Source: Anaerolineae bacterium
GTDB taxonomy: Bacteria > Chloroflexota > Anaerolineae > CG2-30-64-16
Length of the DNA stretch: 64,000 bases
Direction: 5' to 3'
Assembly (NCBI GenBank): GCA_034432655.1
Contig: DAOUBP010000157.1
Coordinates: forward strand, 6,874-70,873
This document shows positions 544 through 58,968 of this stretch, one piece after another. The position numbers were made by a program, and so were the translations under genes. The notes beneath the pieces were generated by a model. The model did not search any database. It worked only from the letters and a program-made list of their open reading frames with translations, and was not told the origin of the DNA. Positions within the stretch are counted from its first letter, which is position 1. Every line of letters starts with the position of its first letter.

Positions 544-2115
544 TCAACCGTTCCACCGCTCCAGCAGCGCCGCAAACAGCCGCACGCCGTACCCGGTGGC
601 GCCCTTGGGCTGGGCGGGCTTATCCTCTTCGGCCCAGGCCATGGAGGCCATGTCTATGTGTGCCCAGGGGTAACCTTCGGTAAAATGCTCCAGGAACTTG
701 GCGCTGGTGCCGATGCCGGCAAAGCGGCCGGCTGTGTTCTTCACATCGGCCACCTGGCTCTTGATGGCCTCGGCGTACTCGTCATACAACGGCAGCCGCC
801 ACAGCCGGTCACCGGACGCCTCGGCTGCGGCCAGCAATTTGCCGGCCAGGTCATCGTTGTTGCTGAACACGGCCGCAGCCTGCGGGCCCAGGGCGATGGC
901 CTGCGCGCCGGTGAGGGTGGCGATGTCCACCACCGCAGCCGGGTTGTATTGCGCGGCATAGGCCAGCGCGTCGGCCAGCAACATACGGCCCTCGGCGTCG
1001 GTGCTGATCACCTCCATGGTCTTCCCTTTCATGCCGGTGAAGACGTCGCCCGGCTTCTGCGCGCGGCCGCCGGGCAGGTTCTCGGCGCAGGGGGCCAGGC
1101 CGACGACGCGCAGCGGCAGGTTCAAGCGGGCCACCACGCCCAGGGCCGCGATCACCGCGGCCGCGCCGGCCATGTCGTCCTTCATCTTCCACATTTCCTC
1201 GGACGGCTTGATGGAGATGCCGCCTGAGTCGAAGGTGACCCCTTTGCCGGCCAGCACCACCGTCGGCAGGTCGGTGCGATCCGGGTTGTGCTCCAGCACG
1301 ATGAACCTGGGTTCCTGCTCCGATTCCTCGGCCACAGCCATGAAGATGCCCATGCCCAACGCCTTGCACTCGGCGCGACCCAACGCCTGGAACCGCAGGC
1401 CGGTCTCCCGGGCCAGCGCCTCGGCCCGTTCGGCCATGACGGTGGGGGTCATGTGGTTGGCCGGGGTGTTCACCAGGTCGCGCGCGAAGTTGACGCCTGC
1501 CGCCACCACCTCGGCGCGGGCCGCGGCGGCCTGCAACGTGGGCAACCGCTCGGGGTCCCGCTCGACGATGGTCAGCGTCTCCGGGTCGGGCTTCCAGTCC
1601 TTGGGTGGCACGGAGCGGTAGCCGGCGTAGCGGTACAGGCCCAGCCGGGTGCCTTCGACCAGCGCGGCGGCCGCCTTAGCGGGGTCCAGCCCGCCGATGC
1701 CGGCGCCATGGACGATGGTCGCCACGGTCTTGGCGCCCAGATCGCGCGCCTTGCGCGCGGCTGTGGCAGCCGCGTTGCGCGCCTCGCGCAGATCGAACTT
1801 AGCGGCCTCACCCAGGCCGACGACCAGCACACGTGGGGCCGGCAGCGCGCCGCGGGTGTAAAGCACCAGCGTCTCGCCGCTCTTGCCGCTGAAGTCACCC
1901 GCCGCGATCACCTCGCTGATTGCGCCGCCCAGCGCCTGGTCCACTGCGCCCGTTGCGCCCCCGGGCGCGGTCACGCCCTGGAAGAGGTTGACGACGATGA
2001 GGTCAGCGATGACCTCGGTGATACTGCCTTTCCAAACGGTTATTTTCATTGCCTGGCTCCTGTCGCTGTAAATACCATGAAGTTCCGGAATTGACCCATG
2101 CTCGAATTGTAACAC
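544..2115 (-). CDS. pepA: Leucyl aminopeptidase (M17 family)
   Basis: NTDAEGR-type signature (VISTDAEGRMLLADALAYA) and NTPANHMTPT region. 523 aa. Confidence 0.9.
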   Translation of the reverse strand: MLQFEHGSIPELHGIYSDRSQAMKITVWKGSITEVIADLIVVNLFQGVTAPGGATGAVDQALGGAISEVIAAGDFSGKSGETLVLYTRGALPAPRVLVVGLGEAAKFDLREARNAAATAARKARDLGAKTVATIVHGAGIGGLDPAKAAAALVEGTRLGLYRYAGYRSVPPKDWKPDPETLTIVERDPERLPTLQAAAARAEVVAAGVNFARDLVNTPANHMTPTVMAERAEALARETGLRFQALGRAECKALGMGIFMAVAEESEQEPRFIVLEHNPDRTDLPTVVLAGKGVTFDSGGISIKPSEEMWKMKDDMAGAAAVIAALGVVARLNLPLRVVGLAPCAENLPGGRAQKPGDVFTGMKGKTMEVISTDAEGRMLLADALAYAAQYNPAAVVDIATLTGAQAIALGPQAAAVFSNNDDLAGKLLAAAEASGDRLWRLPLYDEYAEAIKSQVADVKNTAGRFAGIGTSAKFLEHFTEGYPWAHIDMASMAWAEEDKPAQPKGATGYGVRLFAALLERWNG

Positions 2116-2262
2116 ATGACAAATACCTCTCTCAAGTTAGTGTAAATGTCACTTCACATCGGCCAGATGAGGCCTTATACTGCCGACAGTTAGTGTGACG
2201 GGGCTCAGGGCGGCAGCGTGCCCTAAACCAGGCCTTCATTCTAATGCAAAGGAGAGATTCCC

Positions 2263-2400
2263 ATGACGGCTATTGACCTCAACGAACTCGAAGTTGTCGA
2301 ACAATCGGTCGTGCAGTCGGGCGCTTCGACTACCGGCGGCGTCTTGTGCGGGATCGGGTGCAGCGGCTGGATCTGCGGCCTGGGCTGCGGCTGGGTCTAA
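2263..2400 (+). CDS. 45-aa Cys/Gly/Trp-rich peptide; candidate RiPP precursor
   Basis: ATG 2263 preceded by AAAGGAGAG at 2248-2256. Translation MTAIDLNELEVVEQSVVQSGASTTGG-VLCGIGCSGWICGLGCGWV, a leader-like N-half and a core with a duplicated C-G-x-G-C-(S)-G-W motif. Too short for the ORF track. Confidence 0.5.
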   Translation: MTAIDLNELEVVEQSVVQSGASTTGGVLCGIGCSGWICGLGCGWV

Positions 2401-2485
2401 GGCTCTGCGCCGAATCGCGCCGGGGGCAGGGCGCCTGTCAGAGGGTTCCCTGTCCCCGGCCTCACCACGTATCAGGAGTTGGCTC

Positions 2486-3739
2486 ATGTTCGGTCGGAAA
2501 GTACGCTCAGGCGTTGGCGTCACGTTGCTGCTGACTGTGCTGATGCTCGGCGCATGCGCTCCCAAATCAACGCCGGGTTCGAGTACGGCCGAACAGGCGC
2601 CGACGATTCACCAAGTGCTGCTCGGCCAACGCGTGGCTCTGGATCTGGCTGCCGGACGCTACGCCTGGCAAGGAACATCCGATATCCTGTTTCTCGGTGA
2701 TCTCTTTGCGGAAGGGACCAAACCTACGCTAGTTATCGCCTACTCAGTAGCCGATCAACAGGAACGGTGGCGAACTGAGCTGACCGCCACGCCACTCAAC
2801 GCTTGGCAGGCAGGCGATACGTATCTGGTCGCGACCGCCCCAGCTGAAACCAACCATGACAACCAGGGGCATCTTGTCGCCCTGGCGACAGACGACGGCC
2901 ATGTGTTATGGGATCAGGCGCTGGGCGAGGCGAACGTGGCGGTGACCGGGCTCGGTTCGCGGGTGTGGGTGGCGGCCGCAGCTGGGGTCGTTGAGATTGA
3001 CCCGCAGACCGGCGCGACCATCGGTGACGTGGTGGCGTGGCAGGAGCGGCCGCGCGGCAACGCGCGGACGGTGCACGCCTACACCTACGAAGGGCGCACG
3101 CAACTTGTCCTATCCGGCGGTCAGGAGCTTTACGCCTACGAGGAAAGCGCGACCGGCTGGACTGAGCGTTGGCATTTTCACGCCGCAAGCCCTGTCATGG
3201 AGACGGGAACGGTGGTCTGGGAGGCGGGCCAGGCGCCACACGTAGAGGCGCTGGCCTTCGGCGCCGCGTACGACATCAAGCCGGATGGAACCACTGGCTG
3301 GCGGATCACCAACCAGGATGTGAACCAGGGGATGCAGCTCGTAAGCTGTGGCGATGGCACAGTTCGCTACGTTTTCGGCAACGTGGCGAGCGGCGTCTAC
3401 CTGGTGGGCAGCGCAGGCGTTGAGCGTTCCTGGCAGTTGCCGGGTGGCCAGGCCAGGCTGGGACCGATCCCGCTCCCGATCGCTGCCAACCCCACCTTCG
3501 GTGTAGCTGCGGGGGACTTGAACGGTGACGGACAGGACGAAATCATAGCTCGTTCGCCCAAGGCGTTGTTCGTGTTCGATTGCCGGGGCCGCCTGCTCGG
3601 CAGCACGGCGCTGAATGACGGCACAAACGATAGCCTGGTCAGCCAGATACGCGGCCTGCCAGGTTATCGGCCCTTCGTGCTGGGCGCCCAATTGGTTGTA
3701 GCCGAAAAGGGACAACTGAGTTATTTTACACTGCAATAA
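2486..3739 (+). CDS. Secreted lipoprotein with beta-propeller (PQQ/BamB-like) and FG-GAP-like repeats
   Basis: ATG 2486 after AGGAG at 2474-2478. Lipobox-like LLTVLMLGAC. Repeats such as DDGHVLWDQALGE and GDLNGDGQDEIIARSP. Confidence 0.6.
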   Translation: MFGRKVRSGVGVTLLLTVLMLGACAPKSTPGSSTAEQAPTIHQVLLGQRVALDLAAGRYAWQGTSDILFLGDLFAEGTKPTLVIAYSVADQQERWRTELTATPLNAWQAGDTYLVATAPAETNHDNQGHLVALATDDGHVLWDQALGEANVAVTGLGSRVWVAAAAGVVEIDPQTGATIGDVVAWQERPRGNARTVHAYTYEGRTQLVLSGGQELYAYEESATGWTERWHFHAASPVMETGTVVWEAGQAPHVEALAFGAAYDIKPDGTTGWRITNQDVNQGMQLVSCGDGTVRYVFGNVASGVYLVGSAGVERSWQLPGGQARLGPIPLPIAANPTFGVAAGDLNGDGQDEIIARSPKALFVFDCRGRLLGSTALNDGTNDSLVSQIRGLPGYRPFVLGAQLVVAEKGQLSYFTLQ

Positions 3740-3750
3740 GGAGCTTCAAG

Positions 3751-4275
3751 ATGACCTCCACTAAGCTGCACCTGTTCAGTGATGGGAGAACGCACATAGC
3801 CTATCACCCCGAGACCCGAATATTCTACCGGCTCGATGACGCAGCATGGGAATCCCGCGATGTGGCCGACGATGCCTTTCTCACCGCGCCGACGTTGCCG
3901 TCATCAGCCGCCAGCAAGATCCAGGGTACGTCCTCCAATGCGGCGCCAGCCGCTAGCCCCTGGACCTTGGAACGGCTGGTCATGGTGATCACAACGCACT
4001 GCAATCTGCGCTGCCGCTATTGCTATGCCGAAGGCGGGCACTACGGGACAACGCGGCAGCATATGCAGCCTGAGCTGGCGCGACAGGCATTGGCGTGGGT
4101 GCTGGAGCTTTTCGAGACGGTGGGCGTCGTGCAGTTTTTCGGGGGCGAACCTTCGCTGAATACCAAGGCGATCGCGGCCATTTGCGAGCAGTTCGACGCG
4201 CACGTAGCGGCAGGACGGCTGGCGCAGCCTCCCGGGTATGCGATGGTCACGAATGGCACATTGCTGGGAGCGTGA
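3751..4275 (+). pseudogene. Radical SAM (SPASM/anSME-type peptide maturase family) N-terminal half only; truncated
   Basis: CNLRCRYC (Cx3Cx2C), FFGGEPSLN and MVTNGTLL motifs. N-terminus LHLFSDGRTHIAYHPETRIFYRLDD typical of peptide-modifying rSAM enzymes. The ORF stops at 174 aa, directly before the ABC ATPase start, and no SPASM/C-terminal barrel half follows. Confidence 0.55.
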
Positions 4276-4279
4276 AAAC

Positions 4280-5179
4280 ATGAGCGAGCGCTTGTTGCTT
4301 GAGACGCGTCACCTGGGCAAAAGATTTGGCTCGTTCGAGGCGCTGCGCGATGTCAATCTGCATATCGCGGAGGGCGACATCTACGTGTTGCTGGGCCCGA
4401 ACGGCTCCGGCAAGAGCACGACGCTGAGCATCATCACGGGGATGCTAAGGCCTACGTCCGGCGAAGTGGTCTATACCGGCCGGCCGGGTACGCTGGCCGG
4501 CTTCATTGGCACGCCGCCGGTCTATCCCCACCTGTCGGCGCGCGCAAACCTGGAAATCTCCTACCTGATGCGCGGTCTGCCGGTGGTCACGCGCCGGATC
4601 GATGACGTGCTGGCCACCGTCGGCCTGGCGGAGGCGCGCGACCGCCGGGCGGGGGAGTTCTCCACCGGGATGCGCCAGCGGTTGGGGATCGGCCGGGCGC
4701 TTCTTTTCTCGCCGCGGCTGATCGTGCTGGATGAGCCGACGAACGGGCTCGATCCCGAGGGCATCGTGGACATCCGTGAGATAATCCAGCGTCTCAACCG
4801 GGATCACCGCATCACCTGGTTGGTTTCCAGCCACATGCTCGCGGAGGTCGAAAAGATCGCCACGCGGGCCGGCATTCTGATGAACGGATCCCTGTTGAGG
4901 GAAATGAGCCTGGATGGCGCGCTGGACAACGCAAAGGTTTTCTCACTGGATACCCCGGAGCCGGAACGGGCCAAGGCGCTTCTGCCGGTCGGAGTCACCC
5001 TGCTGGAGGAGGATGCGACGAGCCTGATCATCCAGCTCGACAACGGTCTCGGCCCGGTGGAGTTGAACCGGTATCTGGTGGGCAAGGGCATCCCGGTGGC
5101 CGGACTGGGCCGCGTGCCCAATCGGCTGGAGGCCACCTACTTTCAAGTGTGCTATGGCGGGAAAGGAGACAGACGATGA
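4280..5179 (+). CDS. ABC transporter ATP-binding protein (ABC-2/DrrA-like)
   Basis: Walker A GPNGSGKST, signature FSTGMRQRL, Walker B LIVLDEPTNGLD. Start chosen at MSERLL. Confidence 0.9.
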   Translation: MSERLLLETRHLGKRFGSFEALRDVNLHIAEGDIYVLLGPNGSGKSTTLSIITGMLRPTSGEVVYTGRPGTLAGFIGTPPVYPHLSARANLEISYLMRGLPVVTRRIDDVLATVGLAEARDRRAGEFSTGMRQRLGIGRALLFSPRLIVLDEPTNGLDPEGIVDIREIIQRLNRDHRITWLVSSHMLAEVEKIATRAGILMNGSLLREMSLDGALDNAKVFSLDTPEPERAKALLPVGVTLLEEDATSLIIQLDNGLGPVELNRYLVGKGIPVAGLGRVPNRLEATYFQVCYGGKGDRR

Positions 5180-5946
5180 TCCGGGCTGCGCTGAAAACCT
5201 ATCTCAGTTGGCGCGGATTCTGGGCGCTGAACCTCATCGGTCTGGGTTTGCTGGTGCTCTATTCGTTGGTTTTGGTCGGCATGGATCGCGTCGGCTGGAT
5301 GCCGGTGAGTGGGCTGGATTACCTGGTGGGTTCACTCAATGTCTATCTGACCAATCTGCTGCCCCTGCTGGTTTGCCTGTTCGCGGCCCAGGCCTTTGCT
5401 TCCGAGTACCAGTGGCGTACGTTGATGATCCCACTGTTCGAAGGCGTGCCGCGCTGGCGGATCGCGCTCAGCAAGGTGGTATTGAGCGCGGTTGCCACGG
5501 TCGTGTTCGTTGCGGTCTATCTTGTGGCGGCGGCCGGGCTGGCTTTTCTCCTGTTTTCGTTCAAAGGAGTGATGCTGGAAAGCCGGGTGATCTCGGCCGG
5601 CGAGGCGCTCTTCAGGCTGGCAGTCGCAGGCGGCTGGCTGACTTTGGTCATTTGCCTGTTCGGCTGGTTGGCGCTGGCGCTGGTGGTCCAGCTCAGGCAG
5701 CCCCTCCTTGCCGGTATCGGCGCGTTTCTGGTCTTCATTGCGATATTGGAAACCCAGGGCCCGCGCAGCCCATTCGCACCCTGGTTCCAGGTCGCGCAAA
5801 CCTTGGTCAAGGCGCCGGACCTGGCCAATTCGGACGTTGCGCGGCTTGTGGCCCGCGGTGGCGCCATCTGGCTGGCCGCTGCCGCCTTGATCATTGGCTG
5901 GTTGTTGTGCCTGTTCAACCGCCGCGACATCACCTTGGACGCGTGA
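5176..5946 (+). CDS. ABC-2 type transporter permease (multi-TM)
   Basis: ATGA overlap with the upstream ATPase and AAGGAG RBS. About six hydrophobic helices. Confidence 0.7.
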   Translation: MIRAALKTYLSWRGFWALNLIGLGLLVLYSLVLVGMDRVGWMPVSGLDYLVGSLNVYLTNLLPLLVCLFAAQAFASEYQWRTLMIPLFEGVPRWRIALSKVVLSAVATVVFVAVYLVAAAGLAFLLFSFKGVMLESRVISAGEALFRLAVAGGWLTLVICLFGWLALALVVQLRQPLLAGIGAFLVFIAILETQGPRSPFAPWFQVAQTLVKAPDLANSDVARLVARGGAIWLAAAALIIGWLLCLFNRRDITLDA

Positions 5947-5952
5947 CGGGTG

Positions 5953-5982
5953 TTGACGGGTTTTGGTCTGCTATGGTAGAAT
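5953..5982 (+). promoter_or_regulatory. Putative sigma70-type promoter: TTGACG / 18 bp / TGgTAGAAT (extended -10)
   Basis: Sequence read directly; drives the 6014 small ORF, polyprenyl-synthase-like gene, HK and RR block. Confidence 0.35.
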
Positions 5983-6013
5983 TCTGTCACTTTTCTCACG
6001 AAAGTAGTTCATC

Positions 6014-6223
6014 ATGAACACTCTTGCAACGGCAGTTCGGATGCTCAGTGAAGGTCGCCAGTCTTCAGACAGAATGGCCCTATCGGCCGCTGAGCGTGAA
6101 GCGTTGAAGCGGATTTCCTCCTTGCTTGATGGGTCTACGCGCCGGTTAGCTACTGCGCTCGATGAGATCAGCACAGATATGGTTTGGGTGGTTGCCCCGG
6201 AGCGTGATGCGGTCACGGGATGA
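6014..6223 (+). CDS. Hypothetical small protein (69 aa)
   Basis: ORF with ATGA overlap into the downstream gene. No recognisable domain. Confidence 0.35.
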   Translation: MNTLATAVRMLSEGRQSSDRMALSAAEREALKRISSLLDGSTRRLATALDEISTDMVWVVAPERDAVTG

Positions 6224-7236
6224 TCGGCGTTCCTCCGGCAGAGCCTGCACACATCGAGTCTCTGGTTGCCCGCTATCGGCAGGCGTTCAGCGCCCAAGTC
6301 CGTTCGGCGATCCAAGAAAGCATTGATCCGACCCCATTGCGCGCCTACTTGATACGCCTGGTTGAGGCGGGGATGCTGCGTGATGTGGAGACGGTCGGTA
6401 TTGGCTGGCTGCCAATTCTGGCCTGTGAAGCGTGCGGCGCCGATGGCGCCCGCGCCCTGCCCGTTGCTGCAGCCTGGCAACTGGTTCGTCTCGCGGTCAA
6501 GCTCCTGGACGACGTGGAAGACGGGGATGGCGGCGCCAGCGAGCACTCAGGCATCGCGATCAACGCCGCGACCGCCCTGCTCTCCGTGGCGCATGTGACA
6601 ATCGGGCACGGGACCGGCATGTCGTTGAGCCGGACACAGCGCACGGCAGATGGCTTGCAGCATGCGCTCCTGTTAGCGGCCTCCGGTCAGCATCGTGACC
6701 TGGCGGCCAGGGGTTCGGCCGATCCGATGAGCCCGGATGAGTGGCTCGCGGTCGCGGAAGCCAAATCGGGCGCGCTGCTGCGCTGGGCGGTCGAGGCTGG
6801 CGCCCTGGTCGCGGGTGCGCGTCGCGCGCTCGCGACGGCGCTGGGCGAATATGGTTGGCGCCTGGGCATCCTCCTGCAGCTGGCAGACGATCTGACCGAT
6901 TGCTGGCGAGGCGGGGATGACAGCGACCTTGCCGCAGGATCTCTGACCTTACCGCTATGCTATGCACTCTGGGTTGCATCCGACGACGAGCAGCGGCGAC
7001 TTGCGCAGCTGCTGCTGGCTCGGCGGCAGGGGGATCAGGCTGCCGCCAGCCAACTTGGGCAGATGCTGATCGACATGGGGGCCCAGGCCTACCTGCTGAC
7101 GGTCGCGCTGGCCCAGCGTGCGCAAGCACTGGCCGCGCTCGATCGGGCAGCGCCGGCGCTCGGCGAGACGGGACGGCTTCTCCTGGAGCCGATGATTGAC
7201 TATGCCTTCCCGGCATTTCGGCCGCTTGGAATTTGA
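6220..7236 (+). CDS. Polyprenyl synthetase (isoprenyl diphosphate synthase) family protein, divergent
   Basis: Two Asp-rich motifs, LLDDVEDGD and LADDLTDCWRGGDDSD, in the expected spacing for the FARM/SARM of trans-IPPS enzymes. Confidence 0.55.
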   Translation: MIGVPPAEPAHIESLVARYRQAFSAQVRSAIQESIDPTPLRAYLIRLVEAGMLRDVETVGIGWLPILACEACGADGARALPVAAAWQLVRLAVKLLDDVEDGDGGASEHSGIAINAATALLSVAHVTIGHGTGMSLSRTQRTADGLQHALLLAASGQHRDLAARGSADPMSPDEWLAVAEAKSGALLRWAVEAGALVAGARRALATALGEYGWRLGILLQLADDLTDCWRGGDDSDLAAGSLTLPLCYALWVASDDEQRRLAQLLLARRQGDQAAASQLGQMLIDMGAQAYLLTVALAQRAQALAALDRAAPALGETGRLLLEPMIDYAFPAFRPLGI

Positions 7237-7237
7237 C

Positions 7238-9493
7238 ATGGCAGACGGCATGATGGGCCGCATCCGGGCGCTTCACGATTGGAAACGGCTCTTGCGCGGG
7301 CTGGTCGGGATCGGGTTGCCGTGCCTCGGCCTGGCGATGACCATCTTCGTGGCCTACAGCGCCTGGCAGTGCCCCAGCTCAGCCTATCCGCAAGACTGTC
7401 CTACACCGGCGCTCATCATTTCCCCCAGCCTGACCGCGCTGGGTTTTCTGGGCACGGCATTTTATGCCTGGCGCGCGCGCCGGCCTGTTTCGGTCGTGGC
7501 CTACTTCTGGGTGGGGAGCATGGCGCTCGTCACCGGACTGTTTTCCGGTGCAAGCCTGGTGATTGCTGCGCCGTTATTCTATACGACCATCGTCTGGCTG
7601 GCTCCTGTCAGTCTCAAAGCACACTTGACGCTGCTCGGGCGCTCGCTCAAGCCGGTTGAGCAGATGCTCCTGGTGATCTCAGTCGCGCTGGCCGTAGTTT
7701 GGACAGCACCGTTGCTCGCGTATGTCGGCCCCGCGCTACCGGCCAGGAACTTGATCAGCAGGCTGTGGGGCGGTGTACTCCTGACCCTGGTCCTCACGCT
7801 TTTCCTCATCCCCATCGTCTTGTGGCGTGGCTATCGTTCGGGCCTGTCTCCCGCGGCCGCCCGGCAGATCCGCTTCGTGGCGGTGGGCAGCAGCCTGGCG
7901 TTCGCGCCGTTGGCCCTACTTTCGATCTTACCTGGCCAATTGGGAAGCCCGATCCAGGTACCTTACGAAATCACTTTCCCCTGGTTGCTGCTGAACCCGT
8001 TGTCCTATCTGTATACGTTCTACCGAGCGCGACTGGCGCGGATGGAACCGCTGATCGACCGGATCGCGGTGGTGTTTCTGCTGACGGTGTTCTTTCTCTC
8101 GACCTACCTGGTCATCGAACCGTTGGTTGCACGCCTGGCGATCCCGTCAGACTACAAATTGTTGGCGGTAACGGTTGCCCTCTTGTTGGGCATCCTGCTG
8201 TTTCGCCGTCTGGAGCGGGTACTCAAGGCGTTTGTCGCCTGGCCGCTTCAGGGGGATCACCCGCCCGGTGTCATTATTGACCGTCTGACCGAAGTGTTCT
8301 CGCTCACTACCGAACATGCCGTGCTTCGGCAGTTGCTGCTTGATCAGCTGCCGCAGACCTTCCGGGCGCTGGCCGAAGTGTTAGCACTGCGGACGCGAGG
8401 CCAGGAACTGGCACTGGAGTATGCTGCACATTGGACACCAGAGAAACGTTTGGGTTGGGCGATGTCCGTCAAAGGGGTGCTGGCAAGCAGGCTGGTCGAG
8501 TTGGCGCGCCCTGTGACGTTCCATGATCTTCAGAGGAGCCTGCCGGACCGCAGTAACCTTACATCGGCCGAGGTCTGCCTGCTCGAGATGCAGCCCGGTT
8601 GGCTTCTTTTACCCCTGGTTTCTGGCGGCGTTTTGCAAGGCATCTTGATCCTGGCCGGCCGGGCTGATGACGATCCCTGGCAAAACGTGGACTTTGAAAC
8701 CTTGACCATCCTGGGGCGTCAGGCCGGCGCGACGATCCACAACTTGCTGCTCCTGGAGCAAATCCGCGCCAGCCGCGATGAACTGGAACGTGTCCATCGT
8801 CAGTTCGTGGTGAGCCAGGATCGCCAGCAACGCCAGCTTGCGCAGGATCTTCATGACGGCGCGGTCCAGCACCTGCTCGGCATCAGTTACCAGTTGGCCG
8901 AGGCTCAACGCCGCGCGGCCCATCCATCGGATACCGCAGCGCCTTCCCTGGAGGAGATTCGGGCGGAGGTGCTGGCTGTCAGCGGGCAGTTGCGCAAGCT
9001 GATCGGCCAACTGCATCCTGCCGGGCTTGATGAGATGGGCCTGGTTGCCGCCCTGGAGGGCTACGTGGCACGGGTGCAGCGGGAAGCCGGGCCGCACGCG
9101 CCGTCGATCCGGCTGGATTTGGACCGTCGCGGCGCCTTCCTGCCGGAAGCGGTGAGCGTCTGCCTCTTTCGGACGGCCCAGGAGGGCATCCGCAACGCCC
9201 TGGAGCACGCTTGCGCGACCCGCATTGATGTGACGCTACGCATCAGTCGCGACGCGGCCGATCTGAGCGTGGAGGACGACGGCTGCGGGTTCCTGATCCC
9301 GGATCGTCTCAGTGAGTTGGCCCAGGCCGATCATTTCGGGTTGGTGGGTGTCGCCGAGCGGGTCGCGTGGATCGGCGGTCAGTTCGAGATACGATCTCAG
9401 CCCGCGAAAGGCGTGACGATTCGCGTCAGTGTGCCGCTGACGCAGAGTGAGGAAACGGATGAGCAGTCTGATCAGGGTAGTGCTGGCGGATGA
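7238..9493 (+). CDS. Sensor histidine kinase (multi-TM N-terminus, HisKA_3 + HATPase_c; NarX/DesK-like)
   Basis: H-box LAQDLHDGAVQHL. ATPase G-boxes DDGCGF and GLVGVAERV. Start set to ATG 7238 just after the upstream stop. Confidence 0.85.
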   Translation: MADGMMGRIRALHDWKRLLRGLVGIGLPCLGLAMTIFVAYSAWQCPSSAYPQDCPTPALIISPSLTALGFLGTAFYAWRARRPVSVVAYFWVGSMALVTGLFSGASLVIAAPLFYTTIVWLAPVSLKAHLTLLGRSLKPVEQMLLVISVALAVVWTAPLLAYVGPALPARNLISRLWGGVLLTLVLTLFLIPIVLWRGYRSGLSPAAARQIRFVAVGSSLAFAPLALLSILPGQLGSPIQVPYEITFPWLLLNPLSYLYTFYRARLARMEPLIDRIAVVFLLTVFFLSTYLVIEPLVARLAIPSDYKLLAVTVALLLGILLFRRLERVLKAFVAWPLQGDHPPGVIIDRLTEVFSLTTEHAVLRQLLLDQLPQTFRALAEVLALRTRGQELALEYAAHWTPEKRLGWAMSVKGVLASRLVELARPVTFHDLQRSLPDRSNLTSAEVCLLEMQPGWLLLPLVSGGVLQGILILAGRADDDPWQNVDFETLTILGRQAGATIHNLLLLEQIRASRDELERVHRQFVVSQDRQQRQLAQDLHDGAVQHLLGISYQLAEAQRRAAHPSDTAAPSLEEIRAEVLAVSGQLRKLIGQLHPAGLDEMGLVAALEGYVARVQREAGPHAPSIRLDLDRRGAFLPEAVSVCLFRTAQEGIRNALEHACATRIDVTLRISRDAADLSVEDDGCGFLIPDRLSELAQADHFGLVGVAERVAWIGGQFEIRSQPAKGVTIRVSVPLTQSEETDEQSDQGSAGG

Positions 9494-10100
9494 TCATCCG
9501 CTGGTCCGCGCCGGTTTGCGAACGGTACTGACCGGCGTGGAGGGCATCCAAATCGTGGGTGAGGCCGTAGACGGCCACGTCGCGCGGCGGATGGTCCAGG
9601 AGCTGCGGCCCGATGTACTGCTACTGGACTTGAGTATGCCCGGCCCGCCGGCGGTGGAGACCATTGCGTGGCTGGCCGAGCATTGCCCCCAGGTCAAAGT
9701 GCTGGCCCTGACCGCATACGACGATGACGCCTACGTGCGCGGCGTGGTGGCAGCGGGTGTACCCGGGTACGTACTCAAGGATGAGGCGCCGGAAGCCGTG
9801 GTCCGCGCGATCCGCGCGGTCATGGAGGGAGACACGTGGTTCAGCCGGCGCGTCGTGGACAAGCTCGTCCGGCTCAGCGTTGATAAGGAAGATGTCCACC
9901 TGACTAAGGTATCGCTGAGCGAGCGAGATGCGGCCGTGCTCAAGTTGATCGCGCGGGGTTGGGACAACAGCCGGATCGCTGCCGAACTTTGCGTCGCCGA
10001 GCCAACCGTGCGCAACTATGTCAGCCGCATCTACACAGCCCTGGGCGTCCGTTCGCGCGCTGAGGCGATCGTGTGGGCGCGGGAGAATGGGTACACGTGA
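9459..10100 (+). CDS. Response regulator, NarL/LuxR family (REC + HTH_LuxR)
   Basis: VVLADDHPLVRAGL and DLSMPG receiver motifs. C-terminal LuxR HTH (LSERDAAVLKLIARGWDNSRIAAEL). Confidence 0.9.
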   Translation: MSSLIRVVLADDHPLVRAGLRTVLTGVEGIQIVGEAVDGHVARRMVQELRPDVLLLDLSMPGPPAVETIAWLAEHCPQVKVLALTAYDDDAYVRGVVAAGVPGYVLKDEAPEAVVRAIRAVMEGDTWFSRRVVDKLVRLSVDKEDVHLTKVSLSERDAAVLKLIARGWDNSRIAAELCVAEPTVRNYVSRIYTALGVRSRAEAIVWARENGYT

Positions 10101-10103
10101 GAC

Positions 10104-10210
10104 GTGTTGCGTGCGTACTGCGTATTGCGTACTGCGTACTGCGTATTGCAGAGCTGCGCGCAGTTGTTAGAGTGCGAGATGAAGTACGCAGTACGCAGTG
10201 CACAGTACAC
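10104..10210. repeat. Heptanucleotide tandem repeat (TGCGTAC/TGCGTAT x~6) followed by inverted copies (GTACGCA x3); hairpin-forming
   Basis: Seen directly between convergent genes; probable bidirectional terminator-like structure. Confidence 0.7.
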
Positions 10211-10225
10211 CGGGTGTCAACGTGC

Positions 10226-10834
10226 TTAGAGCTCCTCTCGTAACCTCGCCAGGATCGCCAACGCTCTCTCCAGCCTCTGCTGGTTCGCCGCCACGTTGAA
10301 CCATTGGCTCGCGCCCGAGGGGTGAGGGAGGGGCACGATGATGCGGCCGTCGCGCTCGAAACAGCCGCCGATCAGGTCGGTCATGGCGGTCCCATTGCCC
10401 AGAAATCTCGCGATCGCCAACGCGCCGATGGGGATGAGCACCCGCGGCTGGATCAGCGCCAGCGCAGCCTCCAGCCAGGGCGCGCAGAGCGCCTGCTCGG
10501 CCCGCGTGGGCACGCGGTCCCCGCGGCCGGCCGGGTGCGGGCCAGGGTAGCACAGGGTGATCGCGGTCATGGCCTGCGTGGCGCGAAACTCGGCCTCGGC
10601 GAAGCCGGCCTCCGCCAGCCAGCGGAAGAGCCGCCGGCCGGCCGGGCCGGAGAAGGGCTGATGCGACACCTCGGCCTCGTGCCGGCCGGGCGCCTGGCCG
10701 ATCGTCATGAAGGTCGCGCCGGGGTGAAGGATGAAGATGGGCGTCGAGCCGATAAAGTAGCCCGCCTCCGCGCAGCGGCGACAAGTGGCGAGAGCGGAAC
10801 AGAGAACGTCGAGAGAAGAGATAGGGACGTTCAA
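10226..10834 (-). CDS. Uracil-DNA glycosylase superfamily protein (family 4/5-like)
   Basis: GQAPG motif and C-terminal HPS motif (PLPHPSGAS). Confidence 0.7.
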   Translation of the reverse strand: MNVPISSLDVLCSALATCRRCAEAGYFIGSTPIFILHPGATFMTIGQAPGRHEAEVSHQPFSGPAGRRLFRWLAEAGFAEAEFRATQAMTAITLCYPGPHPAGRGDRVPTRAEQALCAPWLEAALALIQPRVLIPIGALAIARFLGNGTAMTDLIGGCFERDGRIIVPLPHPSGASQWFNVAANQQRLERALAILARLREEL

Positions 10835-14117: not shown

Positions 14118-15659
14118 TCAGCGGTTGCGGCCGTACGTCTCGTGCGCCGAAACCCAATCCAGCGATGAAATCGCAGCCGCCAGCGAGATCTCGCCGGCCA
14201 GCGCCACCCCGGCCACGATCTCGGCGAACTTGAGCACCTTGCCCTTGCCGTAGCAGCCCAGGATCTCCAGGCACTCGCGCTGGGTGGCCAGGCCGGTGCC
14301 GCCGCCATAGGTGGCCACGATCAACGACGGCAGGGTCAGGGAAAGGTAAAGATCGTGTTCGGGCGTCAGCTCCGAGTAGATGATGCCGGCCGAGGACTCC
14401 GCAACATTGGCCGCATCCTGACCCGTAGCGATAAAGAGGGCTGTGATCGCGTTGGCCGCGTGCAGGCCGTTGTTGTTGGCACCGGACAGAAACGCGCCCA
14501 CGTTGGCCACCCCCGCATGATAGGCGAGTTGTTCCGGCTCCACGCGCAACTGCTGGATCAGCACATCGCGCTTGATGGTGGCCTCGGCGGTGACGCGCTT
14601 GCCGCGCGTGCGCATGATGTTGATCTGTGAAGCTTTCTTGTCCGTGGCGAAGTTGGATTCCAGATAAAAACGCCGGATGCCGGGATAGTTATCAATGATC
14701 CAGCTGCACGCGGCAAAGGTCGCCCGGCCCACCATGTTCTGGCCAGCCGCGTCCCCGGTGTAGAAGTTAAACCGCAGATAGGCGAACTTGTTTGCCAGGA
14801 AAGGATCAATGTAGCGCAGCTTGGCCACATGGGAGGTCGCCTCGGCCTCCTCCCGGATCTTGTCAATATGCTCCTGCACCCAAACCACGAAATCGCGTGC
14901 GCCGCGGGCATCATCGAAGACGAAAACCGGTGCGCGTTGCATGGCATCATCCACCACGGTGCATTTGACGCCGCCGCACTGGTTCAGCACCTTCATACCG
15001 CGGTTGTACGAGGCCACCAGGGTGCCTTCAGCCGTTGCCAGGGGGATGATGAACTCGCCCTGGGCGTGCTCGCCGTTGATCCGCAGCGGGCCGGCAAACC
15101 CCAACGGCACTTGCGCCACGCCGGTAAAATGCTCGCAGTTGCCTTTAGCCAGATGGGGATCGAAGGAGAAATGGGAGATATGTTGCAGTTTGACGCCGCT
15201 GAAACTTTCAACGAACGCCTGCCTGCGCTTCACCACCTCATCGTTGTAGTCGTCCACAGGGTCACGCGGGATGCGGACCTGCGCCTCCTCCGTCTGAGAG
15301 ATGGCGTCTTCCACGGCAAACTGCAACTTGCCGAACGGCCGCGACTCGAACGCAACGACGATGCCGTGCTTGCCGTCCTTCAACGGCTCCACCGCCAATA
15401 CCACATCCACCACCATGCGCAGCGGAAAACTTAATGGGCGGTCGGGCGTGATCTCGGCCGGGGTCAGGCTCCGGCCGTCCGGCAGGATCAGTTTCACAGC
15501 CTGGAGCGGGACGGTGCGGCCATCGAGGACAATGCTGCGCAGGCCCACCAGCTCGGCGTCGCTCAGCCGGTTCTTGATCGAGAAAACGACCCCCTGCGGT
15601 GTGTTCTTCAGGCTGCCCAGGGTATACAACTTCTTCAAAAGCAGACTCGGGATCAACAT
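14118..15659 (-). CDS. Hydroxymethylglutaryl-CoA reductase (class I catalytic domain) with about 110-aa N-terminal extension
   Basis: HMGR motifs ATAEGTLVASYNRG, GDAAGQNMV (DAMGxN-like) and ATYGGGTG (GTVGGGT-like). Confidence 0.85.
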   Translation of the reverse strand: MLIPSLLLKKLYTLGSLKNTPQGVVFSIKNRLSDAELVGLRSIVLDGRTVPLQAVKLILPDGRSLTPAEITPDRPLSFPLRMVVDVVLAVEPLKDGKHGIVVAFESRPFGKLQFAVEDAISQTEEAQVRIPRDPVDDYNDEVVKRRQAFVESFSGVKLQHISHFSFDPHLAKGNCEHFTGVAQVPLGFAGPLRINGEHAQGEFIIPLATAEGTLVASYNRGMKVLNQCGGVKCTVVDDAMQRAPVFVFDDARGARDFVVWVQEHIDKIREEAEATSHVAKLRYIDPFLANKFAYLRFNFYTGDAAGQNMVGRATFAACSWIIDNYPGIRRFYLESNFATDKKASQINIMRTRGKRVTAEATIKRDVLIQQLRVEPEQLAYHAGVANVGAFLSGANNNGLHAANAITALFIATGQDAANVAESSAGIIYSELTPEHDLYLSLTLPSLIVATYGGGTGLATQRECLEILGCYGKGKVLKFAEIVAGVALAGEISLAAAISSLDWVSAHETYGRNR

Positions 15660-58088: not shown

Positions 58089-58176
58089 GCCGAAGTGGCG
58101 GAATGGCAGACGCGCTAGGTTCAGGACCTAGTGAGGATTAGACCTCGTGTGGGTTCAACTCCCACCTTCGGCACCA
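58089..58176 (+). tRNA. tRNA-Leu (anticodon CAG), long variable arm, encoded CCA
   Basis: Acceptor GCCGAAG/CTTCGGC. Anticodon loop TTCAGGA. T-arm GGTTCAACTCC. Confidence 0.85.
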
Positions 58177-58249
58177 CGTTTCGTAAGAATCCCACGCACG
58201 ATTGTCGTGGGATTCTGCGCTTGAAGGCCACAGAAGACTGGAGGATGGC

Positions 58250-58654
58250 ATGTCCGCAGACCGCGGGTGGCGGCGTCTGCCGAGCCGCGAACACTGGCTC
58301 TTGCTAGTCGGTATTGCGGCACTGGTCTTCTTCGCCTTCGGTTTCGTGGAATTGACCGTCACCCGGCAGAATTTGATGGCTCGTTACGAACGTGCCGCCG
58401 GGCGGGTGGAACGGATGCGAGAGCAAAACGCTCTTCTGCAACCAGAACTGACCCGGGGCCAACAAGATGAACATCTGCCCGGGCGGGCGTGGCAATACTT
58501 CGGGCAGACCCCGCCGGGGGCTGGGGTGATCATTGCCGAACCGCCAACAATGGCAGCGCCGCAGCCAGCCGCAACGACATCGGCAACGCGGGAACCTGTT
58601 TGGATTGTGGTCTGGAAACGTTTGATCGGGGCTTTGACAAATCGGCGGTTTTGA
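58250..58654 (+). CDS. Hypothetical small membrane protein, FtsB/DivIC (septum formation initiator)-like
   Basis: Single TM (WLLLVGIAALVFFAFGF) followed by a coiled coil (NLMARYERAAGRVERMREQNALLQ). Confidence 0.4.
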   Translation: MSADRGWRRLPSREHWLLLVGIAALVFFAFGFVELTVTRQNLMARYERAAGRVERMREQNALLQPELTRGQQDEHLPGRAWQYFGQTPPGAGVIIAEPPTMAAPQPAATTSATREPVWIVVWKRLIGALTNRRF

Positions 58655-58661
58655 TTATAAT
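58634..58661 (+). promoter_or_regulatory. Consensus promoter TTGACA / 16 bp / TATAAT for initiator tRNA
   Basis: Read directly; 12 nt upstream of the tRNA 5' end. Confidence 0.55.
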
Positions 58662-58673
58662 ATAAGTCAGTGA

Positions 58674-58747
<74 letters not shown>

Positions 58748-58750
58748 TCG

Positions 58751-58788
58751 TAAGCCTGATAGCAAAAGCTATCAGGCTTATTCTTTTG
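58751..58788 (+). terminator. Rho-independent terminator (TAAGCCTGATAGC-aaaa-GCTATCAGGCTTA + TTCTTTT)
   Basis: Seen directly after the tRNA-fMet. Confidence 0.6.
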
Positions 58789-58852
58789 CGGAACTAATCA
58801 CAGCGTGAGCCCGTCGGGCCTTTTCAGGCTGAGAAGCGCAATCGGCTGCGAT

Positions 58853-58881
58853 TTGACCGCGGAGCCCTACTTGCATATAAT
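58853..58881 (+). promoter_or_regulatory. Promoter TTGACC / 17 bp / TATAAT upstream of tRNA-Met
   Basis: Read directly. Confidence 0.5.
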
Positions 58882-58894
58882 GTAAATGGCTTAC

Positions 58895-58968
58895 GGCGAC
58901 GTAGCTCAGTGGCAGAGCAAGCGGCTCATAATCGCTGGGTCGACAGTTCAAGTCTGTCCGTCGCCACC
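58895..58968 (+). tRNA. tRNA with CAT anticodon (elongator Met or lysidine Ile2)
   Basis: Acceptor GGCGACG/CGTCGCC. Loop CTCATAA. T-arm GACAGTTCAAGTCTGTC. Confidence 0.8.

Follow-up and report, generated by a model that had tools for sequence, protein, structure and literature searches.

A probable RiPP cassette of an Anaerolineae bacterium that has lost most of its radical-SAM gene, a protease-like gene and two precursor genes by deletion

We analyzed a 64,000-nucleotide stretch of DNA from an Anaerolineae bacterium (GenBank assembly GCA_034432655.1, contig DAOUBP010000157.1, forward-strand positions 6,874 to 70,873), hereafter called the window, and focus on a locus at its left end that resembles a gene cluster for a peptide made by the ribosome and modified after translation (RiPP). 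The five genes listed there by a preliminary description are all found on the + strand when the open reading frames (ORFs) are checked. These encode a 45-aa Cys-rich precursor peptide of a type we call C (2263..2400, +; the sole remaining precursor gene, with an AGGAG ribosome-binding site), a 417-aa beta-propeller lipoprotein (2486..3739, +), a 174-aa radical S-adenosylmethionine (rSAM) ORF (3751..4275, +), an ABC transporter ATPase (4280..5179, +), and an ABC-2 type permease of 256 aa with six hydrophobic segments (5176..5946, +). As described earlier, the rSAM ORF is cut to 174 aa and stops 4 nt before the ATPase start, and the ATPase and permease genes are coupled by an ATGA overlap at 5176. 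Both transporter genes are intact, the assignments resting on Pfam, on comparison with a close relative and, for the ATPase, also on NCBIfam. Because the same gene order recurs in other distinct loci, the five are real genes and not chance ORFs. A consensus scan places a putative promoter-like site (TTCACA-17-TATACT; 2153..2181, +) upstream of the precursor gene.

The rSAM ORF keeps the CNLRCRYC (CxxxCxxC) and FFGGEP (GGE) motifs and matches the Pfam Radical_SAM profile with 39.8 bits (cut-off 29.5), the alignment covering only profile positions 1–88 of 166. Its product ends in ...VTNGTLLGA*, just after the VTNGT strand and inside the core barrel, and it falls short of a full maturase, as the rest of the partial-TIM barrel and all seven SPASM cysteines are missing. 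The best NCBIfam matches are the N-terminal thirds of PapB (69.7 bits), the nif11 rSAM enzyme, the SCIFF maturase (50.9 bits), and GggB. Given that about two thirds of the enzyme are gone, including both auxiliary Fe-S sites, we infer that this remnant is catalytically dead.

A word-indexed homology search with the 174-aa remnant returns only itself, and relatives are reached via the lipoprotein and then via an intact 464-aa protein. The lipoprotein leads, at 99% protein identity, to a 12.5-kb Logan metagenome contig from run SRR28579829 (hereafter L006). This contig carries pepA on the opposite strand, three small ORFs (46, 45, and 45 aa), a 417-aa lipoprotein, and a 464-aa protein with Radical_SAM and SPASM domains, and continues with a 409-aa protein, a 299-aa ABC ATPase, a 256-aa permease, a 69-aa ORF, a polyprenyl-synthase-like gene, a kinase, and a regulator. 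The intact rSAM/SPASM gene sits at the same position as the remnant, in sequence that is 99.6% identical. This supports the decaying-cluster option of the preliminary description, which had named an intact rSAM-SPASM gene of about 400 aa at this position in close relatives as the thing to look for.

Alignment of the window with L006 by blastn yields three collinear blocks, i.e. window 544–2190 with L006 124–1770 (89.5% identity), window 2191–4262 with L006 2188–4259 (99.57%), and window 4262–10390 with L006 6382–12486 (97.9%, and 99–100% as far as ~9960). The window is without L006 1771–2187 (417 bp) and without L006 4260–6382 (2,123 bp), and neither the deleted segments nor their products are found elsewhere in the 64 kb by blastn and tblastn. 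Specifically, a tblastn search of the window with the 464-aa protein matches residues 1–172 only, and the 64 kb contain no second rSAM-type CxxxCxxC ORF, no SPASM-like sequence, and no rSAM continuation in any frame. Relocation of the missing maturase half within the window is rejected, as blastn, tblastn, and the ORF motif scan do not find it.

The junction of the 2,123-bp deletion (4262..4263) is an in-frame fusion with 1–2 nt of microhomology and no repeat. Across it the window reads ...ACGAATGGCACATT/GCTGGGAGCGTGAAAACATG..., where the slash marks the junction; L006 reads ...GGCACATT/TTTGCCGCC... on the left side of the deletion (rSAM ...VTNGTFLPP...) and ...GGGTGCTGTT/GGGAGCGTGAAAACATG... 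on the right side (protease ...RVLLGA*, then the ABC start). The remnant is therefore a chimeric ORF made of rSAM codons 1–170, a hybrid Leu codon, and L-G-A with the TGA stop from the 3′ end of the protease gene. The deletion removed the whole gene of the 409-aa HExxH protease save its last four codons, which are all that the window retains of a RiPP-type HExxH metalloprotease gene. It spared the translation start signals of the ABC ATPase, a GGGAG Shine-Dalgarno sequence and an ATG that lie 18 nt downstream of the junction. A frameshift at 4250–4300 had been thought possible; since the lesion is a 2,123-bp deletion, after which the ABC gene follows 4 nt behind the stop, re-sequencing this interval would not restore the rSAM gene.

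The 417-bp deletion, whose junction is placed at 2190..2191 by blastn and by the junction sequences, took precursor genes A (46 aa) and B (45 aa) and kept the TAG stop of B at 2191–2193. Sequence up to 2190 is joined directly to this TAG, and precursor C now stands behind the promoter-like site at 2153–2181. This site lies in a segment common to both contigs (L006 1733–1761), and in L006 it precedes the first precursor gene, that of type A. The remaining precursor gene is 100% identical to L006 2260–2397.

The deleted allele is also present in a second Logan contig (L001, run SRR7903765), which is 100% identical to the window over 9,235 bp including the junction and has the same 174-aa ORF. 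All seven retained genes are open, without internal stops, and differ from L006 by at most 9 nonsynonymous and 7 synonymous changes per gene. Not one substitution separates the 510-nt rSAM remnant or the precursor gene from their L006 counterparts, so the deletion is a recent one.

Identity to L006 varies along the window. Positions ~2044 to ~9960 form an island that is 99–100% identical, flanked on the pepA side (544–2043) by sequence of ~89–90% identity (pS, the synonymous divergence, is 0.27) and beyond 9963 (to 10390) by sequence of 76–88% identity. As the island is 99–100% identical while its flanks are only ~76–90% identical, this pattern suggests that the whole cluster was recently exchanged by recombination, or swept, between lineages diverging by ~10%; a chimeric metagenome contig is an alternative explanation for the island.

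Searching with the intact 464-aa protein recovers 17 clusters at 42–59% identity, all of 446–470 aa, so full length is the rule in the family and none of the 17 conserves a short or split form. In the maturase alignment (A2), the CNLRCxYC, FFGGEP, and TNG motifs are invariant, and the seven SPASM cysteines (C327, C345, C387, C390, C396, C399, and C418) are kept in ~90% or more of the sequences. The gene context is a different one in L017, whose maturase is 38% identical, and on this ground we set the edge of the family at about that value.

We then read the gene contexts of eight more distant distinct loci (L002-4, L005, L007, L009/10, L011/12, L013, L014/15, and L016), with lipoproteins 43–53% and maturases 42–59% identical to those of the window and L006. 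The same cassette is present in six of the eight (L002-4, L005, L009/10, L011/12, L014/15, and L016), in the order of one to three small Cys/Gly-rich ORFs, a propeller of ~400–424 aa (381 as called in L005), the rSAM/SPASM protein, a protein of ~395–416 aa, the ABC ATPase, and a permease of 255–256 aa. Up to three precursor types occur, in the same A-B-C order, and a HisKA_3 kinase and a GerE regulator usually follow or precede the cassette. The remaining two are L007, where the 3.2-kb contig breaks off within the gene following the propeller and shows the cassette start only, and L013, which has the maturase and the downstream module without propeller or protease. Since the distant loci share the full architecture in the same gene order, their comparison indicates that the full-length form is ancestral and that the window represents a derived, deleted state. 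Where annotation is available, the cassette-bearing contigs belong to Anaerolineales or Anaerolineae metagenome-assembled genomes (MAGs). No description of this cassette was found in the literature on ranthipeptides and Chloroflexi, on rSAM enzymes with propeller lipoproteins, or on Anaerolineae sactipeptides, within an incomplete literature coverage.

The intact maturase passes the SPASM model TIGR04085 (52.4 bits, cut-off 27) and stays below the cut-off of each enzyme family compared. PapB (NF047865) is the best match, with 192.5 bits against a cut-off of 340, followed by the models for QhpD (158.8 against 453), the nif11-peptide rSAM enzyme (156.1 against 518.7), and the SCIFF maturase TIGR03974 (133.1 against 425); the sactipeptide maturase models RumMC and StsB give 73.5 bits (cut-off 720) and 53.5 bits (cut-off 625). 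Because all family scores fall below their cut-offs, the intact maturase appears to be a separate branch beside the thioether-forming maturases, in no curated family. The makeup called canonical for sactipeptide/ranthipeptide clusters is therefore present in the intact relative as far as gene types go (precursor, rSAM-SPASM enzyme, and exporter), while the class itself is not matched, as the maturase fits no curated sactipeptide or ranthipeptide model.

The window precursor consists of a 26-aa leader ending in GG, MTAIDLNELEVVEQSVVQSGASTTGG, and a 19-aa core with four Cys, VLCGIGCSGWICGLGCGWV. An alignment of 15 family precursors (A3) gives the leader consensus M-x-x-[IV]-D-L-[TN]-[DE]-L-E-x-[VI]-E-E-S-...-G-G and cores with four invariant Cys in the pattern CGxxC-x(3-4)-CGxxC. 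Three paralogous types are distinguished: A ends in ...WC[YW]P, B has extra Cys/Gly repeats, and C ends in ...GCG[FWY]x. The Cys-rich precursors have no match among Pfam or NCBIfam models, and the window peptide is no SCIFF precursor (the name stands for six Cys in forty-five residues), having four Cys and no match to the SCIFF peptide family.

The locus L013 differs in its peptide as well. In its region 9431–9745 and the neighboring genes, a maturase of the same family (45% identity) lies beside a 104-aa precursor with a CGNGC-containing core and a long N-terminal leader that is NHLP-like by eye; C39-peptidase ABC exporters take the place of the propeller and the HExxH protease, and the module of small peptide, polyprenyl-synthase-fold protein, kinase, and regulator is nearby. 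This arrangement suggests that the CGxGC core, and not the leader type, goes with this maturase branch.

The 409-aa protein encoded in the deleted segment is a candidate site-2-protease-like leader peptidase. Its matches are to the daptide HExxH intramembrane metalloprotease NF041824 (E 3.7e-15, 55.9 bits, cut-off 300), to the YydH/LiaK epipeptide protease NF058609 (E 3.4e-6, 26.9 bits, cut-off 225), and weakly to Pfam Peptidase_M50. HEAAH occurs at residue 200, the conserved NxxPxxPxTDG motif takes the form NLLPILPLTDG, and the sequence contains about five hydrophobic segments. For its N-terminal ~95 residues no Pfam model backs a peptide-recognition domain, and we make no claim for one. Elsewhere in the family, contigs L010 (6672–7727) and L009 (11529–12749) are 99.9% identical over the compared protease region and differ by a 1-nt indel that frameshifts the L010 protease at residue 345 (351 aa vs 406 aa), which is either a sequencing error or a second production-gene knock-out in this cassette family.

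The lipoprotein has the lipobox LGAC, and its true start is at 2486 (MFGRKVRSGVGVTLLLTVLMLGAC...) rather than at the TTG at 2273 of the mechanical ORF. Two Pfam models are passed marginally, PQQ_2 (PF13360; 28.8 bits, cut-off 27.6) and FG-GAP (PF01839; 25.6 bits, cut-off 22.1), and the protein carries one FG-GAP-type DxDGDG loop. An AlphaFold2 model from a 7-sequence alignment is all-beta with a mean pLDDT of 60, and Foldseek relates it to generic 7- or 8-bladed propellers, with BamB first (TM ~0.39) and tetrathionate hydrolase and YxaL also among the matches. The earlier term 'BamB-like' is thus apt for the fold class, as far as a low-confidence model goes, and does not extend to membership of the BamB family, as the BamB equivalog TIGR03300 scores 15 bits against a cut-off of 285.2. 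A hidden Markov model search of 1.84 billion representative proteins finds ~15 near-full-length or fragment matches at E ~1e-29 or better, below which the match list drops to generic FG-GAP/PQQ repeat proteins at E 1e-13. With the lipoprotein alignment, a scan of metagenome contigs confirms nothing and a scan of genome contigs returns a single species representative, an Anaerolineales MAG. The propeller had been regarded as unusual between precursor and maturase; its presence across loci makes it rather a conserved, family-specific member of the cassette. We guess, by analogy with LanI lipoproteins, that it could serve in immunity or peptide binding.

Among NCBIfam models, the ABC ATPase is matched best by TIGR03740, a model for lantibiotic-protection ABC ATPases, with 210.6 bits against a cut-off of 309.75; the permease has no NCBIfam match. 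All family loci that extend far enough include a permease gene of 255–256 aa. The ATPase differs from that of L006 by 9 nonsynonymous and 2 synonymous changes, and outgroups place derived changes on both lineages. At codon 177 (window 4808), a Gly shared by L006 and five more distant homologues is replaced by Arg in the window (...NRDH[G>R]ITWLVSSH...).

Downstream of the transporter, four further + strand genes form a module that is also found after the ABC genes in L006, L002, L005, L011, and L014/15, and that L013 has on the opposite strand. The first is a 69-aa ORF (6014..6223, +) whose C-terminal tail (...DMVWVVAPERDAVTG) contains a Trp 12 residues from the end. In five other distinct loci the corresponding position holds an ORF of 74–88 aa, and Trp occurs in the C-terminal tail in 6/6 distinct sequences. 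The window ORF matches no Pfam or NCBIfam model, and those of L002 and L005 match the NHLP-clan Os1348 model below cut-off. A 338-aa polyprenyl-synthase-fold protein (6220..7236, +), assigned from Pfam, PDB matches, and motif alignment, follows. Domain matches then identify a membrane histidine kinase with ~10 hydrophobic segments and GAF, HisKA_3, and HATPase_c domains (7238..9493, +) and a NarL/GerE-type response regulator (9459..10100, +). A second putative promoter-like site from the consensus scan, TTGACG-18-TAGAAT with a TG extension (5953..5982, +), lies ahead of the small-peptide, prenyltransferase-like, and kinase genes.

The polyprenyl-synthase-fold protein is without the basic GGKRxRP region and keeps DDVED and DDLTD. 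In a PDB search it matches octaprenyl diphosphate synthase, with the indole prenyltransferase Ord1 ranked second (9v4g, E 1e-10), i.e. Ord1 is matched about as well as true chain-elongating synthases. The ComQ-like StheQ of Sphaerobacter thermophilus prenylates its peptide StheX, in a biological role stated to be unknown, and in ComQ and StheQ the second Asp-rich motif is defined as a pseudo-motif, NDxxx (bioRxiv 10.64898/2026.08.29.745113). Tested against these enzymes, the window protein has the first Asp-rich motif (DDxxD, here DDVED, with a degenerate DxxxD in relatives) and adjoins a small Trp-containing ORF, a HisKA_3 membrane kinase, and a GerE regulator. It does not have the NDxxx form, reading DDLTD where relatives have DD[LY]x[DG]. 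The protein is a candidate ComQ/Ord1-like peptide prenyltransferase, and we treat a ComQXPA-like module as a lead, not a finding.

Among other features, consensus terminator sites in the window are no more numerous than in shuffled sequence, and Rfam and tRNA scans give nothing near the locus. ARAGORN reports a tRNA-Ser(GGA) at 15330–15419 (−), in a region where both strands carry long ORFs; at gathering threshold, the tRNA model of Rfam makes no report there, yet confirms the three other tRNAs at 58089–58968.

Given the two deletions, their direction, and a full set of intact retained genes, we consider it very probable that a conserved RiPP cassette was recently crippled here by loss of the 2,123-bp and 417-bp segments. 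In the intact cassette, the precursors would be bound via their conserved leader, and the rSAM/SPASM enzyme would cross-link the four Cys. A thioether is the favored guess for the cross-link, because all the nearest characterized maturase relatives make thioethers. The membrane HExxH protease would then cut the leader off after GG, and the ABC-2 transporter would export the product, protect the producer, or both. In the window, the cross-linking and leader-removal steps would be lost, from which it follows that the strain most likely no longer makes a mature peptide. By analogy with other systems, it may keep export or self-protection through the ABC-2 transporter and the lipoprotein, as well as signaling.

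Several points weigh against this interpretation. The intact comparator L006 is a single metagenome-derived contig rather than a finished genome. The population could be mixed, with the deletion allele as one of its variants, and the NCBI and Logan contigs that carry this allele may come from the same reads. The chemistry is also uncertain: PapB, QhpD, and CteB use Asp, Glu, or Thr acceptor residues, which the cores of this family are without, and the thioether assignment comes from homology alone. Lastly, the G177R change of the window ATPase, at a Gly that is invariant in six homologues, speaks against a retained transporter function.

Why the crippled cassette persists is a separate matter. 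It is possible, if doubtful, that the loss was selected, i.e. that an immune, signal-responsive non-producer ('cheater') dropped costly biosynthetic genes and retained its protection (lipoprotein and ABC-2 transporter) and its sensing module, which would explain persistence only and not the nature of the deletion. Both deletions hit production genes only (two precursors, the maturase, and the protease), and the in-frame junction leaves the ABC ATPase translationally coupled and with its Shine-Dalgarno sequence. The best model for this ATPase, below cut-off, is a lantibiotic-protection protein. The seven retained genes are intact, with pN/pS (the nonsynonymous to synonymous ratio) ≤ 0.4 for the lipoprotein, permease, prenyltransferase-like gene, kinase, and regulator. 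However, with substitutions of only 0–9 per gene this ratio has low power, and the ATPase, with its 9 nonsynonymous against 2 synonymous changes, including the one at the invariant Gly, does not fit. The immunity role of the lipoprotein and ABC-2 transporter is moreover only an analogy, and the deletion is so recent that the retained genes may have lacked the time to decay. With so few substitutions, neutral decay and selected loss cannot be separated.

An artefact of assembly or sequencing, in which the full-length maturase is real and the contig collapsed or skipped 2.1 kb, is very unlikely. The window does come from a draft-style 140-kb contig, the metagenome population may hold both alleles, and the two assemblies with the deletion may share reads. 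On the other hand, neither junction has a repeat (1–2 nt of microhomology) that an assembler could have collapsed, the independently built contig L001 is identical through the junction, and the absence of 2,123 bp, with the ABC gene 4 nt after the stop, is not a frameshift.

We give still less credence to the proposal of a working half enzyme, in which some other rSAM/SPASM fragment or protein would supply in trans what the 174-aa protein is missing. The ORF is intact, with CxxxCxxC and GGE kept and a good ribosome-binding site, but it ends inside the core barrel after VTNGT in four foreign codons from the protease gene. This option of the preliminary description finds no support in the family, where there is no split or short relative, or in the 64 kb, where there is no other CxxxCxxC or SPASM ORF; the cluster has also lost its leader protease and two precursor genes. 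Finally, an ancestral short form, with insertions of 2.1 kb and 0.4 kb in L006, has nothing in its favor beyond the bare existence of the indel, and can practically be dismissed, as distant loci share the full-length rSAM gene, the protease, and up to three precursor types, and as the last codons of the remnant ORF are those of the protease gene.

If the locus is indeed a recently crippled cassette, it is a cluster caught just after losing its maturase, its leader protease, and two of its three precursor genes. Together, the window and L006 form a natural knock-out/wild-type pair, 99–100% identical across the cluster, which suits dating of the loss and lets one ask if selection acts on production or on protection alone. 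As gene decay the case is ordinary, and the intact family to which it belongs is the more interesting find. The remnant led us to a rare cassette with an extracytoplasmic propeller and Cys/Gly-rich cores, most copies of which are linked to a ComQ-like enzyme, a Trp-containing peptide, a kinase, and a regulator. These loci offer a candidate sensor kinase, a regulator, and a candidate regulated output, in the same phylum as StheQ.

A bolder reading, which we put forward only tentatively, is that the intact locus represents an undescribed RiPP family, with four-Cys cores, up to three precursor types, a distinct thioether-branch maturase, its own propeller, a site-2-protease-like leader peptidase, and a mostly hard-wired ComX/ComQ/ComP/ComA-like module, and that the window strain is a natural non-producer that keeps sensing and self-protection. 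If true, peptide-pheromone quorum sensing would control a RiPP in uncultured Chloroflexota.

With respect to known systems, PapB/freyrasin, SCIFF (CteB/ScfB), and QhpD share with this cassette an rSAM/SPASM enzyme and short, Cys-rich, leader-bearing substrates. They differ in that the maturase scores far below the respective cut-offs (340–519 bits) and the precursors match no model. This cassette further adds a propeller lipoprotein and an HExxH intramembrane protease, and in the window the enzyme is cut to its first 170 residues.

The epipeptide operon yydFGHIJ of B. subtilis encodes a precursor, a radical-SAM enzyme, a membrane HExxH protease, an ABC ATPase, and an ABC-2 permease, and is the closest to our cassette in operon logic; the 409-aa protein of L006 also matches the YydH/LiaK model. 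By contrast, YydG is an epimerase and not a PapB/SCIFF-like SPASM enzyme, the operon has no propeller lipoprotein, the Cys-rich precursors differ, and the protease match is below cut-off. Sactipeptide operons such as subtilosin sbo-alb have the gene types of the intact cassette, i.e. a Cys-containing precursor, an rSAM/SPASM maturase, one or more metalloproteases, and an ABC-2-type transporter for export and immunity. Here the difference is that sactipeptide maturase models score low on the intact maturase, and an assignment to the sactipeptide type of linkage (Cys sulfur to C-alpha) or the ranthipeptide type (Cys sulfur to C-beta or C-gamma) would be a guess from maturase homology.

For the downstream module, the parallels are ComQXPA of Bacillus and StheQ/StheX, with which the window shares a small Trp-containing ORF, a polyprenyl-synthase-fold enzyme, a HisKA_3 kinase with multiple membrane segments, and a GerE regulator. 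The window gene order is X-Q-P-A and not Q-X-P-A, the second motif is a canonical DDLTD and not NDxxx, and prenylation is here only predicted. For the crippled state itself, the pneumococcal blp locus offers a comparison, as its non-producing alleles with a disrupted transporter reportedly keep immunity and the response to the signal. The window differs from these 'cheater' loci in having lost maturase and protease by deletion and not a transporter by frameshift, with immunity and signaling proposed by analogy, and resembles them in that production genes are lost while the neighboring protection and regulatory genes are intact.

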